A DNA stretch of 64,000 bases from Pseudomonadales bacterium (GCA_965267195.1 OZ253942.1:3270310-3334309); one strand, 5' to 3'. Counted from the stretch's first letter, positions 32,102 through 63,712 are shown. Made by a program: numbers and translations. Notes: a model not told the origin generated them from the letters alone.

Positions 32102-32860
32102 CTAGCCTTTGCGATACGCCTGGCAGGACGGGCAGTCTTCCCTCTGCGGTAGTTTGAGTTTTCGCCAGTCCATGTATCTAGCATCGAACGTCAGCACATA
32201 ACCGGCGAGGGACTCGCCAATGCCGACGATCAGTTTCAGTGCTTCCAATGCCTGCAGGGTGCCAATGGTGCCAACCACCGGCGCGGCAATGCCTGCTTCA
32301 GCACAATTCAGTTGATCATCGGAGGCGTCCTCGTAGAGGCAGCGGTAACATGGCATGGAAGGATCAGTGGCATCGATAACCATAAGCTGACCTTCCATCC
32401 GAATTGCTGCGCCGGATACGAGGGTGGTGCCCTGTCTGAGACAGGCATCATTGATAGCGAAGCGAACTTCAAAATTATCGGTGCAGTCCAGAACCAGATC
32501 TGCTGACTTAACCTCCTGTTCCAACTGATCCAGTGTGAGCTTGTCGTTGATGGTCCTGATGCGTGTTTCAGGATTGATGTCATGGAGTGTTTTCTGTGCG
32601 GAATCAGGTTTTGGCTGTCCGATCATGGCCGTTGAATGGACGATCTGTCTTTGCAGGTTAGAGAGATCGACGGTATCGAAGTCCGCCAGTATCAGTTCAC
32701 CAACGCCGGAGGCTGCAAGGTAAAGCGCCACCGGGCTGCCCAGACCGCCTAACCCAATCACCAGGACTTTTGCTGCTAGGAGTTTTTCCTGACCTTCAAT
32801 ATCGATGTCTGGCAGCATGATGTGTCTTGCATACCGCAACAGCTGGTCGTCATTCATCAT
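32102..32860 (-). CDS. moeB: molybdopterin-synthase adenylyltransferase (MoeB/ThiF family)
   Basis: 252 aa with the GLGGLGSP dinucleotide fold and CxxC pairs (CYRC, CPSC). Same position after prmC as in Pseudomonas. Confidence 0.88.
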   Translation of the reverse strand: MMNDDQLLRYARHIMLPDIDIEGQEKLLAAKVLVIGLGGLGSPVALYLAASGVGELILADFDTVDLSNLQRQIVHSTAMIGQPKPDSAQKTLHDINPETRIRTINDKLTLDQLEQEVKSADLVLDCTDNFEVRFAINDACLRQGTTLVSGAAIRMEGQLMVIDATDPSMPCYRCLYEDASDDQLNCAEAGIAAPVVGTIGTLQALEALKLIVGIGESLAGYVLTFDARYMDWRKLKLPQREDCPSCQAYRKG

Positions 32861-47382: not shown

Positions 47383-49860
47383 TTAGTTGCCGAATCGATA
47401 TCTAAGCTTGACCACAAAAGAGTCGACCTGGGGGTCGTCAAGGGTGTCACTGAACAGGTCCGAAAAGCTGTCTTCCTGGCGTGGCGCCAGCCGATTACCG
47501 CGGTTGTAGACCACAAACAGGTCGGTCAGCGGCGCGATTTCCCATCGATATCGCAGCTGCGCGGTGAGCAGACTGACGGTGAAATCATGGTCGGGCAAGG
47601 TTGGATTCGCGGGGATGAGTTCGCCGTCCCCTGGAGGGACCGCATAGAACCCCTGTTCATCGGCACGGACACCAGCCCACTGCAGAGAGAATCGAAGCTG
47701 ATGCCGGGGCGCCATAAACCAGTTGGCTTCGATCTTGGGCTGCCAGTCGATGGCATCGTAAGCGCCGAAGTTGTTGCGACCCTGGTAGACCAGCCAACCA
47801 TCGCGGCGCTTGTACTTCACATCAAGCTTCATCTCCAGGTTAGGTGTGGGTCTTGCGGTGACACCCATTGAATACTGCTGCGTCCAGTCGCCCAGATCTT
47901 CCTGAAGGCCTCCGATGCTAAACGACCAGGTCAGCATTTTGCTGGCATCTGTCGTCCACAATATGTTCCACCAGACCCTGTCCTCCGCTTTGTAGGCGCC
48001 ATTACCTCTTGAGTCGATGTCCTCGTATCTTTCCGGCAGGTAGGCCAGTGCAGTTTGAAAGGTATTCCTCCCCGGGATCTCGATTCTGTTGCGCCAGTAA
48101 ATTCCGCTATCAACGACCTGACCTTTACTGATGTTGTATTGCTGGCGGACGGTGACGGCGCCGCGGAATGCTTTCAGGTAAGCATCGGGTGCTGCGTGCG
48201 CATAGCGAAAGATGTACTGCAGACCGCCATAGTCATTTCGCCGGAGAAAACCCAGGTCATTGATCTCGACCTCTTCGTCGAAGTAATCCAATTCAACTTT
48301 GTGCTGGAACCTTGAGCTGGGCGCATAGGTCACATCGACCAAAGCGCCTTGACCTGTGATGTCATCGACATCGCTGTGCATCAGTTGAAGATCGGTACTC
48401 CATCGGCCATCGCTGGTGCCGAAGTGCGCATCGAGTCCGTGTACGGAGGCATCGTAGATCGGACCCTGGGTGAAGGTTCCTAGGTATCCGATGGCATAGC
48501 GGTTGCGCTCCGATCTTTCATAGCTCACCCGCGCGACGGCAAAGTCTCGACCATCATCTTCAATGTCGACTTCGTTGCCACTCAGATCAATGCCAAGCCA
48601 CTCCACATCATCTTCGAATGCAGCCAGCATGCCGTATCTGAGATCACCACTCTGTCCCGTGGTCTTGATGGCACCGAGCAGATCCGTTGGCAGGCCGGGT
48701 TCCCCTCGCTTGGGAATCACACCAGGTTCGAGCGTAACCTGGGTGGCGGTGCCACCGATGCGACGGGTGTTTAACAGGGAGATAGGCGGCTGAACAAAGT
48801 CGCTCACGAAAACTCTGCGGGATGTGGTCGCGAAGTTTTCGTTGGTCACTTCTCGAAGGGCGTTGCCACTGTTTGCGCGTGGTGTGGTGACAAAAATTTC
48901 ATTGCCTTCCAGGAAAAACAGACGTTTCTCCGGGAAGAAGGTTTCGAATGCCGTGAGGTTGAGCACGACGTTATCAGCTTCTACTGCGCCAAAGTCCGGA
49001 TTGAGGCTTGCGGTGAGTTCTAGACGAGATGACGGTTTCCAGGTGATGTCAGCGCCAACGTTCAATTCGTTTTCATCGCGCGCGTTATCCACTTCATCAG
49101 AGATATAAGGAATGAACGAGAAAGACTGTCTCGGCTCAACACCTTCGAGGTGCATGGTATTTAGAGCGGTAACAAATTGTGGCGATGAGTAAGTGTGACC
49201 CGGCCAGTAGTAGCGTTCGTTTTTGAACGACACGGTTCTGCTGAGGGCGAAACCTACCTGCCGGGTGCCCGATTGCTCAGGCAGGCTCATCATCGACCAG
49301 GGGTAAAAGATCTCAACACTCCAGCCGTCCTCATTGATGGCCGACTTGTATAGCCAGGGTCCGTCCCAGTCGCTTGAATAACGACGCTCCGGCAAAACCT
49401 TGCCGTCCATGACCACGTCTCCGGGACTCAGGGAAAACCAGAAGGCATAGGTGCCGTCACCGGTGGGATCTATGGTGACGCCGAATGAGTCTCTGTCTGA
49501 TTGCTGGTCCCGCTTCGTCATTCGATGGACGACGGTGTCCGGCGGCTGGTACATGATCGAACTGATGAACAGACCTTTCTCCGTCGCCAGCAGGCGGTTC
49601 TCCGTTTTGTATTCTCCAGGGTCACCGGTCGCAGGTACGGATACCAGCATGTTGTCGAACCAGGGCACCTCTTGCCAGATGGCTTCATCAACGATGCCAT
49701 CCAACTGAATCTCTACGTCTTCATGAGGCCGCGTCTGTACACTGATGTAGTGCATGGGAATGCCATCCAGCTCACCCTTGAGTTCCTGCTGGCCTCGAGG
49801 TGATTCCGCCTGGGCTACTGCACAAGCGATCAATAGAGCCATGATGAGTTGAATACGCAT
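47383..49860 (-). CDS. large secreted/outer-membrane protein, CBM9/DOMON-like N-domain plus DUF5916-like beta-rich body
   Basis: ~825 aa. The signal peptide MRIQLIMALLIACAVAQA|E appears from the ATG at 49860; the tracked GTG at 49926 adds 22 non-signal residues. The N-terminal D/W-rich module (WQEVPWF..., DGWSVEIFYPW) is followed by long beta-strand-like alternation. The family assignment is from memory. Confidence 0.65.
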   Translation of the reverse strand: MRIQLIMALLIACAVAQAESPRGQQELKGELDGIPMHYISVQTRPHEDVEIQLDGIVDEAIWQEVPWFDNMLVSVPATGDPGEYKTENRLLATEKGLFISSIMYQPPDTVVHRMTKRDQQSDRDSFGVTIDPTGDGTYAFWFSLSPGDVVMDGKVLPERRYSSDWDGPWLYKSAINEDGWSVEIFYPWSMMSLPEQSGTRQVGFALSRTVSFKNERYYWPGHTYSSPQFVTALNTMHLEGVEPRQSFSFIPYISDEVDNARDENELNVGADITWKPSSRLELTASLNPDFGAVEADNVVLNLTAFETFFPEKRLFFLEGNEIFVTTPRANSGNALREVTNENFATTSRRVFVSDFVQPPISLLNTRRIGGTATQVTLEPGVIPKRGEPGLPTDLLGAIKTTGQSGDLRYGMLAAFEDDVEWLGIDLSGNEVDIEDDGRDFAVARVSYERSERNRYAIGYLGTFTQGPIYDASVHGLDAHFGTSDGRWSTDLQLMHSDVDDITGQGALVDVTYAPSSRFQHKVELDYFDEEVEINDLGFLRRNDYGGLQYIFRYAHAAPDAYLKAFRGAVTVRQQYNISKGQVVDSGIYWRNRIEIPGRNTFQTALAYLPERYEDIDSRGNGAYKAEDRVWWNILWTTDASKMLTWSFSIGGLQEDLGDWTQQYSMGVTARPTPNLEMKLDVKYKRRDGWLVYQGRNNFGAYDAIDWQPKIEANWFMAPRHQLRFSLQWAGVRADEQGFYAVPPGDGELIPANPTLPDHDFTVSLLTAQLRYRWEIAPLTDLFVVYNRGNRLAPRQEDSFSDLFSDTLDDPQVDSFVVKLRYRFGN

Positions 49861-49990
49861 TGAATTTATTCTGAGTGAGTCACTAACCCCCGTCCACGAA
49901 CATAGTTTTACGTTATGCCGTGCCACCGTGGTGTGATCTGTGTCAGTTGTTGAACTGGATTAATGAGTGATTTTCAGTAACCTGCGCCGC

Positions 49991-61143: not shown

Positions 61144-61488
61144 GTGGACGAAGAAACTAAACAAGAAATTGCAAAACAGATTCAGGACGTCTTACCGGCG
61201 CCGGAAAGTATTCGGGAAGACTGGCACAACCTGATCATCGATACCGTGTTGGATAGTGTCTGGAATCGACCCGGTCTCGCGCAACGTGACAAAAGTCTGG
61301 TGACGATTTCAGCACTGACGGTTCTGAACATGCCCCACGAACTCAAGCTGCACATGCAGCGGGGCTTATCGAACGGTCTCAGTGAGGAAGAGATTACCGA
61401 GGCAATTCTTCATTGCGCTATCTATGGCGGCTTTCCCGCCGCTGTTGAAGGTATGCGAGTCGCTGCGGAATTGTTCGACGGCGCTTAA
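61144..61488 (+). CDS. carboxymuconolactone decarboxylase (CMD) family protein
   Basis: 114 aa, GTG start. The CMD-like core is RDKSLVTISALTVLN...EAILHCAIYGGFPAA. Confidence 0.8.
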   Translation: MDEETKQEIAKQIQDVLPAPESIREDWHNLIIDTVLDSVWNRPGLAQRDKSLVTISALTVLNMPHELKLHMQRGLSNGLSEEEITEAILHCAIYGGFPAAVEGMRVAAELFDGA

Positions 61489-62590: not shown

Positions 62591-63712
62591 ATGGCGCACT
62601 TCGAATACAAAGACAGTCCCTATCCCATCCGGGAAGATATTGGCGAAACACTTCGCGCTTTCTGGGCGCGTCTTGCCTCACCAGGCAGTTGGTGGACGGG
62701 GGATGAAAGAGTAAAGATCGCGGCAGAATGTCGCGCCGCTCGTGATTGCACATTCTGCAAAACAAGAAAAGAGGCGCTGTCCCCGTACACTGGTGAGAAC
62801 AATCACGACGCGGTTACGGATTTACCGGCAAGCGCGGTGGATGCGGTGCATCGCATTGTCACCGATCAGACGCGGATCACTCGAAACTGGATAGAAAGTA
62901 ACGCTGCCGGTGATCTAAGTGTTGAGAAATATGTGGAGCTTGCGGGGATCGTTGTTGCTGTATTGAGTATTGATGAATTCAATCGGGCGTTGGGCATTCC
63001 GTTTGAGCCACTGCCGGAGCCAGTTGCCGGTGACCCCGATCGATATGTGCCTGCCAACCTCGTCACCGGTACCGGCTTTGTACCAATGATTGCAGCAGAT
63101 GGCGCTGTTGGAGACGAAAGCGATCTCTGGTCGCCGAACTTCGCAGCCAACGTGATTCGTGCGCTATCTCTTGTGCCAAATGCGGTGAGGGATTGGGTCA
63201 GTATTGCTGGTGCCCTGTACCTGACTCCCGCAGGCATGGCGAACTTTGTTGGCCAGGACGATCGAAGTATAGATCGCGCACAGATGGAAATTGTTGCGGG
63301 TAGGGTGTCCAGTTACAACGAGTGCTTTTACTGAACCAGTGCTCACGCAACCATGCTCCGTGTGAGCATGCAGGCAACAGAGCGCAACATTGATCTGCAC
63401 GTGATCAATGGAGAAGCTGACGGTGTCGCTGAGGTGCCATTTGCCAACGAACTGTCCGATTTTGCGGAGGCGGTGGCCAGTTTTGATGAAGAGAAGTTGC
63501 TACCTGCGAGGCAGGCATTGCTGGAAGCGGCGGGAGAGGCTGTGTTGGTAGATGCAGCAGGTGTCGCCGGTAACTTCCAGCGAATGGTGCGGATTGCTGA
63601 CTCCATGGGAATCCCGGTGGATTCTATGGATAACGAGGTCCAGAACCAGGTTCGCCAGGAACTGGACCTTTATCGTTTCAGGAGTTCAGAGAACTCGGTG
63701 AATCCTGCCTAA
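62591..63712 (+). CDS. AhpD/CMD-like peroxidase-related protein, putative selenoprotein (in-frame TGA at 63332-63334 read as Sec)
   Basis: ORFs 62591..63334 and 63353..63712 share one frame and are split only by this TGA. Read-through gives RVSSYNECFY-U-TSAH, the AhpD-type E..VS..N.C.YC...H motif with U at the second Cys. A hairpin follows the TGA. Confidence 0.7.
63340..63368 (+). promoter_or_regulatory. candidate bacterial SECIS hairpin
   Basis: The 9-bp stem TGCTCACGC / GTGTGAGCA (one G-U pair) has an 11-nt loop AACCATGCTCC. It starts 6 nt after the TGA. Confidence 0.5.

Follow-up and report, generated by a model that had tools for sequence, protein, structure and literature searches.

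Selenocysteine-containing relatives of the alkylhydroperoxidase AhpD have been described twice over in marine sequence data. One group, “hypothetical protein 1” of the Sargasso Sea selenoproteome, was introduced from four CXXU sequences (Zhang, Fomenko & Gladyshev 2005, PMC1088965), and a 2026 review (PMC13188914) equates it with the NCBIfam family NF041238, whose full name is AhpD_rel_CFYUT, alkylhydroperoxidase-related (seleno)protein. The papers cited here on the NF041238 family are computational (PMC1088965, PMC13188914). The other group, the separate “AhpD-like” (COG2128) selenoproteins, was described in PMC1088965 and in the GOS paper (PMC2398784), and is among the most abundant selenoprotein families in the Sargasso Sea and GOS data. 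The active site of AhpD itself has been described as a proton relay, with residues E118/C130/H132/C133/H137 in Mycobacterium tuberculosis AhpD and E36/C48/Y50/C51/H55 in Pseudomonas aeruginosa PA0269 (PMC3141380).

The locus considered here lies near the end of a 64,000-nucleotide stretch of DNA from a Pseudomonadales bacterium, referred to as the window. With a probability of roughly 90%, judged from comparison with homologous sequences, positions 62591-63712 constitute a single gene for a 373-residue AhpD-related selenoprotein of the NF041238 family, with the motif C-F-Y-U-T. The first-pass annotation had likewise proposed one CxxU selenoprotein of about 373 residues, and a full-length match to NF041238, Cys-containing homologs, a conserved TGA and a SECIS-type hairpin all agree with that proposal. 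The gene is a typical member of an already described and curated selenoprotein family.

One reading frame across an internal TGA

Two open reading frames (ORFs) on the plus strand make up the locus. The first, 62591..63334, begins with ATG, encodes 247 amino acids and is terminated by TGA; the second, 63353..63712, also begins with ATG, encodes 119 amino acids, and is in the same frame at an offset of 762 nt, or 254 codons. The TGA is the sole stop codon between 62591 and the TAA at 63710-63712. This arrangement had been described in the first-pass annotation, and both the ORF check and the translation agree with it. Reading through the TGA gives ...IVAGRVSSYNECFY[TGA]TSAHATMLRVS..., with RVSSYNECFY immediately before the internal stop. 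At local base composition, a run of 125 stop-free codons past a stop has a probability of ~0.003, and the comparative evidence for continued translation is far stronger than this figure. There is no obvious Shine-Dalgarno sequence before the first ORF.

A profile search with the 373-residue read-through product, in which Cys was substituted at the TGA, matched NF041238 from end to end (E=4.2e-135, 450.6 bits against a cutoff of 175), with residues 13-365 aligned to profile positions 1-357 of 357. The C-F-Y-U-T motif that defines the family is present as NECFY[TGA]TSAH, the U codon being the in-frame TGA. The description of the product as an AhpD-like selenoprotein in the first-pass annotation therefore needs amending in one respect: the AhpD-related fold and the CxxU motif stand, but the protein belongs to the 357-residue NF041238 family and not to TIGR01926/COG2128. 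Membership of that classical AhpD-like family is excluded by a score of 38.7 bits against the 81.8-bit cutoff of TIGR01926 (“peroxidase-related enzyme”; residues 183-343 on profile positions 27-175), so that the two are related only. The match to the Pfam CMD family PF02627 falls marginally under its gathering cutoff (22.9 against 23.0 bits). An exact database look-up of the window's 247-residue product returned no record. The features of the locus are collected in the table.

Table. Predicted features of the selenoprotein locus, in window coordinates
Feature	Position	Strand	Details
Complete selenoprotein coding sequence (predicted)	62591..63712	+	373 codons including one Sec-UGA, then TAA; NF041238 AhpD_rel_CFYUT
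Invariant CxxC, Cys53 and Cys56	62747..62758	+	In the all-helical N-terminal half
AhpD-type active-site segment (putative)	63287..63346	+	Glu233, Cys245, Tyr247, Sec248, His252
Active-site codons	Glu233 63287-63289; Cys245 63323-63325; Tyr247 63329-63331; His252 63344-63346	+	
In-frame TGA, predicted Sec, residue 248	63332..63334	+	Second position of CxxU, C245-F-Y-U248
Six codons T249-T254, from the TGA to the second ATG	63335..63352	+	Inferred part of a single protein
SECIS-type hairpin	63352..63370	+	Loop starts 24 nt after UGA
Hairpin parts	5' arm CAUGCUC 63352-63358; loop CGUGU 63359-63363; 3' arm GAGCAUG 63364-63370	+	

At its 3' end the gene meets a convergent cytochrome P450 gene on the minus strand, which extends past the end of the window. 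The two overlap at their stop codons in the sequence CTAA (63709-63712), read as TAA on the plus strand and as TAG on the minus strand, so that no terminator could fit between the two genes.

The window contains 23 read-through candidates. The two with a Cys-containing, redox-like context were inspected, and a third with an adjacent Cys, at 32504 (CU), was left out along with 19 others. Candidate 34178 (CAGU) was rejected as antisense to prfA, and candidate 17857 (UC) as an alternative frame of an MFS transporter.

A conserved TGA and a constrained downstream hairpin

When species-representative genomes were scanned, at least 520 relatives emerged, of which the best 80 loci were analysed. These come mostly from uncultured marine Pseudomonadales and other Gammaproteobacteria, and the closest is in the metagenome-assembled genome (MAG) HXMU1422-5 (L001), at 95% protein identity. 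The tblastn match continues across the TGA in all 80 loci and is collinear over query residues 1 to ~370. Within these loci, 83 copies of the gene were located (77 with NECFY and six with NQCFY); every one of them has TGA at this position, and none has TGC or TGT.

Relatives were also sought in a large public protein collection. The best 120 matches to the N-terminal part (P0001-P0120) are all about 247 amino acids long, cover 66% of the query and end at the Sec codon. Thirty-four of them were aligned and each ends in NECFY, indicating that gene callers halt at the same codon. The 125 C-terminal residues, searched exhaustively, retrieved for the most part fragments of 110-150 amino acids beginning at the Met of MLRVS; among the best 150 C-terminal matches (P0121-P0270), ~146 are stand-alone fragments, many of them beginning at Met255. 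The C-terminal parts are entered as proteins in their own right, of about 120 amino acids. The prediction that standard annotation would split or truncate the gene is thus borne out by all 120 of the best N-terminal entries. Any annotation made without a selenoprotein-aware pipeline will split this gene, and recognizing that is the main practical value of the present analysis.

The C-terminal search also recovered four full-length proteins with CFYC in place of CFYU (P0130, P0218, P0253 and P0267; 361-402 amino acids). All four are collinear with the read-through product at 36-47% identity over the whole length, and carry Cys opposite the TGA. Collinearity with Cys homologs across the TGA had been proposed as a check in the first-pass annotation, which also placed the TGA on the second redox Cys with the downstream His retained; the CFYC alignment and an invariant H252 support both points. 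Such Cys forms are rare, numbering ~4 among the best 150 representatives at 50% identity, and the family almost always occurs in the Sec form.

A short hairpin begins a few codons downstream of the TGA. The published model of the bacterial SECIS element (bSECIS; PMC13188914) specifies an apical loop of 3-9 nt, an upper stem of 4-16 bp, a G within the first two loop positions, a distance of 16-37 nt from the UGA, and a minimum free energy of -7.5 kcal/mol or lower. The hairpin in the window, with its 5-nt loop, G in the second loop position, 7-bp stem, 24-nt spacing and energy of -9.0 kcal/mol, lies within each of these ranges. Folded in isolation it has a z-score of -2.69, with 2 of 200 shuffled sequences as stable.

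Family-wide evidence came from patterns of synonymous change. Among 148 four-fold or six-fold degenerate columns, codons 256-259 (CTC CGT GTG AGC) occupy the four lowest ranks in synonymous entropy: their normalised values are 0.04-0.18, whereas the next column stands at 0.51 and the median is 0.88. In RNA they give GCUC[NGUNU]GAGY, whose four core pairs are unbroken in all 70 sequences (280 of 280 cells). Changes within the core helix comprise seven replacements of G-C by G-U and one compensatory replacement of C-G by U-A; the latter is in L007, a sequence that combines the sole CTT with the sole GTA of the data set. A 7-bp family consensus with a bulged A is paired in 90.8% of cells, as against 19-64% in slid controls, and in the clade of the window the stem is an uninterrupted 7 bp. 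Synonymous constraint and pairing counts together demonstrate, at the level of sequence comparison, that 63352-63370 is a constrained SECIS-type hairpin, in agreement with the bSECIS-type element that the first-pass annotation had suggested looking for.

Other tests of RNA structure, taken alone, give the hairpin no support. The folding energy of the 75-nt region is unremarkable against shuffled sequences (z = -0.89), and against 1000 synonymous recodings the window has z = -1.49, with 78 of 1000 as stable and a family median of ~0. Overall folding energy, being no better than that of synonymous recodings, was dropped as evidence for a SECIS element. Covariation statistics on the hairpin helix were not significant because the helix is nearly invariant, and Rfam yielded no family either at the gathering threshold or with E relaxed to 10. 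In the clade of the window, a competing 10-bp hairpin with an 11-nt loop can form between 63339-63348 and 63360-63369 (GUGCUCACGC/GUGUGAGCAU). This is the minimum-energy fold of the 49-nt region, at -15.9 kcal/mol, and is preferred over the SECIS-type hairpin, but it lies outside the bSECIS model and is unconserved in the family.

Three further observations concern the family as a whole. In 70 of 71 genes the Tyr247 codon, which directly precedes the Sec-UGA, is TAC, and this column has the lowest synonymous entropy of 64 two-fold degenerate columns (0.11 against a median of 0.99). The bias, which the hairpin leaves unexplained, suggests that decoding of the UGA constrains its 5' context. Four loci (L047, L063, L068 and L074) each carry two paralogous copies within a few kb, all with the TGA and the conserved hairpin. 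Finally, L002, L015 and L028 are close orthologs (57-73% identity) whose contigs, 5-15 kb long, belong to MAGs labelled Candidatus Fonsibacter ubiquis, Limisphaerales and Bacteroidia. Since nearly all other loci are gammaproteobacterial, these labels point to mis-binning or horizontal transfer.

The genes for selenocysteine insertion were sought both in the window and beside its orthologs. None of selA, selB, selC and selD was found within the 64-kb window; the only tRNA there is tRNA-Gln, with no tRNA-Sec, a SelD search gave no match, and none of the 17 window ORFs of at least 330 amino acids scanned in NCBIfam is a sel gene. The only SelB-like match in the window is to the GTPase domain of EF-G, and was rejected as selB. 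The window is an ordinary chromosomal stretch containing secY, rpoA, uvrA, proA, mrdA, rodA, dacA, prfA, hemA, ychF, fusA and RND efflux genes. Indirect support came from two orthologous loci. In L066, selB (TIGR00475, 387.6 bits) followed by tRNA-Sec (2031-2124, anticodon TCA) lies ~900 nt upstream of the ortholog, and in L008, a Woeseia MAG, a Cys-type selD (NF002098, 524.6 bits) lies ~630 nt upstream in divergent orientation. These machinery genes occupy L066:108-2124 and L008:1318-2358, and both loci belong to a subgroup with the hairpin loop AGUUU (MLSLS rather than MLRVS).

Alternatives to selenocysteine insertion

Translation could stop at the TGA and restart at the ATG at 63353, by coupled or independent initiation, yielding 247-residue and 119-residue products that may associate. 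Met255, encoded by this ATG, is conserved in 92% of the family, and gene callers routinely predict a second ORF from it; however, the ATG is part of the hairpin stem, which accounts for its conservation. The absence of a visible Shine-Dalgarno sequence upstream of 63353 also speaks against a restart, and the first-pass annotation had likewise seen no ribosome-binding site for the second ORF, but the point is non-discriminating because the first ORF also has no obvious Shine-Dalgarno sequence.

A codon alignment of 71 distinct genes was used to compare codon positions 1, 2 and 3, where mean pairwise differences amount to 0.31/0.24/0.63 on the 5' side of the TGA and 0.32/0.25/0.64 in the downstream part. 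Comparison of the window with L001 gives 24 synonymous and 3 non-synonymous codon changes in the downstream part. Purifying selection downstream would also be expected of a separately translated ORF. In contrast, the six codons between the TGA and the ATG would stay untranslated if initiation occurred at 63353, and these too show a coding pattern, with differences of 0.22/0.15/0.51; T249 and H252 are invariant while their synonymous codons vary, and the window and L001 differ there by 2 synonymous and 0 non-synonymous changes. These data show purifying selection in frame across and beyond the TGA. Moreover, His252, a residue of the catalytic relay by analogy with AhpD, would be lost from both products, and the Cys homologs are single chains. 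Production of two proteins is accordingly a distinctly improbable alternative to a single selenoprotein.

Equally improbable is the incorporation of a standard amino acid such as Trp or Cys at the TGA, whether by near-cognate decoding or under a reassigned code. While the sequence evidence by itself indicates only that translation continues, several lines of evidence argue for selenocysteine. TGA is the ordinary stop codon of 7 of 21 long ORFs in the window, so the code has not been reassigned. The position corresponds to a redox Cys in homologs and is followed by the constrained SECIS-type hairpin, orthologs adjoin selB and tRNA-Sec (L066) or selD (L008), and the family is curated as a selenoprotein family. 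A pseudogene or a sequencing error, with TGC or TGT changed to TGA in this assembly only, has nothing in its favor beyond the bare presence of a stop codon and is effectively refuted by the same TGA in 83 copies assembled independently, with protein identities of 54-95%, and by the ratio of synonymous to non-synonymous downstream changes accumulated since the split from L001.

Selenocysteine insertion in the source organism is the reading that we infer, by analogy with the bacterial mechanism as it is established. In the proposed mechanism, SelB-GTP carrying Sec-tRNA(Sec) would be tethered by the hairpin at 63352-63370 and would insert Sec at the UGA in place of termination. The gene marks its source, a marine Pseudomonadales relative, as a probable user of selenocysteine.

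Proposed chemistry and comparison with known proteins

The positions of Glu233, Cys245, Tyr247, Sec248 and His252 are invariant in alignment A1 (35 sequences), in alignment A2, which includes Cys-type homologs, and in the codon alignment. Sequence matches in the PDB (3c1l, 6k40, 2pfx and 2oyo) cover about residues 170-340; the best of these, 3c1l (E=6e-5), aligns VSSINHCYYCLTAH with VSSYNECFY[U]TSAH. An AlphaFold model of the Cys homolog P0130 is all-helical (pLDDT 90.9, pTM 0.90) and matches the AhpD-family structures 6k40, 2gmy, 2prr and 3c1l with a probability of 1.0 and target TM-scores of 0.60-0.71 over half its length. Judged by the identity of the AhpD motif, the C-terminal half (~residues 175-345) would adopt the AhpD/carboxymuconolactone-decarboxylase (CMD) fold, and Sec248 would occupy the place of the second Cys of the AhpD CxxC. 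Glu233, Tyr247 and His252 would form a proton relay. Cys245 would resolve the oxidised selenium to give a Cys245-Sec248 selenenylsulfide, which a reductant would recycle. On this scheme the protein would be a thiol/selenol oxidoreductase that works as a peroxidase or as a reductase.

The gene neighborhood offers no clue to substrate or reductant, because the neighbors of the window gene (FkbM methyltransferase, DUF6265, glyoxalase, CMD, NHL and P450) are kept only in the sister locus L001. No flanking family is common to more than 10 of the 80 loci, so that no conserved operon partner was found, and ahpC was not found among the neighbors. Two genes upstream, 61144-61488 on the plus strand encodes a small CMD-family protein (114 amino acids; PF02627, 60 bits) with an HCAIYGGFP-type motif. 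It has no CxxC, making a role as redox partner unlikely, and on this basis the protein is probably not a partner of the selenoprotein. Its gene and the convergent NHL-repeat gene share 4 nt at their 3' ends. Elsewhere in the window, beside fusA, an 847-residue ORF on the minus strand (47383-49926) matches nothing in NCBIfam at E up to 1e-5.

The N-terminal half of the protein (62591-63115, ~175 residues) contains a second pair of cysteines, C53 and C56, that are invariant in A1 and A2 and that Cys-type homologs retain. Cys53-x-x-Cys56 may serve as another redox site or as a metal site. When the two halves were compared by hhalign, the CxxC helix paired with the CFYU helix over 17 columns, but the match is not significant (P = 0.08), and an internal duplication was set aside as a hint only. 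Further information came from Sestrin2 (PDB 5dj4), a eukaryotic protein with two AhpD-like lobes that is similar in size and likewise all-helical. In Foldseek, the P0130 model matches Sestrin2 over the whole chain with query TM-scores of 0.45-0.48 and probabilities of 0.85-0.92; the match is weak (E > 0.2, rmsd 13-15 Å), and the two have no sequence relationship. This resemblance, seen in the model, raises the possibility of a second, divergent AhpD-like lobe in the N-terminal half. A more specific proposal, speculative and rather unlikely, is that this diverged lobe makes the protein a sestrin-like intramolecular pseudo-dimer, with the CxxC serving to recycle the Cys245-Sec248 selenenylsulfide. 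If true, it would make the protein a self-contained two-centre selenoenzyme.

The catalytic half can be compared with M. tuberculosis AhpD and P. aeruginosa PA0269. The spacing of the relay, Glu-x11-Cys-x-(His/Tyr)-Cys/Sec-x3-His, is identical, and the fold matches as judged on the model of the Cys homolog P0130. The window protein differs from both in having Sec for the second Cys, and its sequence similarity to them is remote.

The “AhpD-like” selenoproteins (TIGR01926/COG2128) resemble the window protein in the AhpD/CMD fold of its catalytic half, in a CxxU motif that puts Sec at the second redox position, in the following His and in their marine bacterial hosts. In contrast to these single-domain proteins of ~180-200 amino acids, the window protein has an additional N-terminal half of ~175 residues with its invariant CxxC.

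The biological novelty of the locus is small, since the family has been a candidate selenoprotein since 2005, has a dedicated NCBIfam model with the motif in its name and is an entry in the 2026 review catalogue. With NF041238 the window gene shares the end-to-end profile match, the CFYUT motif and the position of Sec, and it agrees with that family in length (about 360-373 amino acids) and in the habitat of its relatives, which are marine uncultured Gammaproteobacteria. The comparison with NF041238 revealed no difference, and a member 95% identical to the window gene is present in the Pseudomonadales MAG HXMU1422-5.
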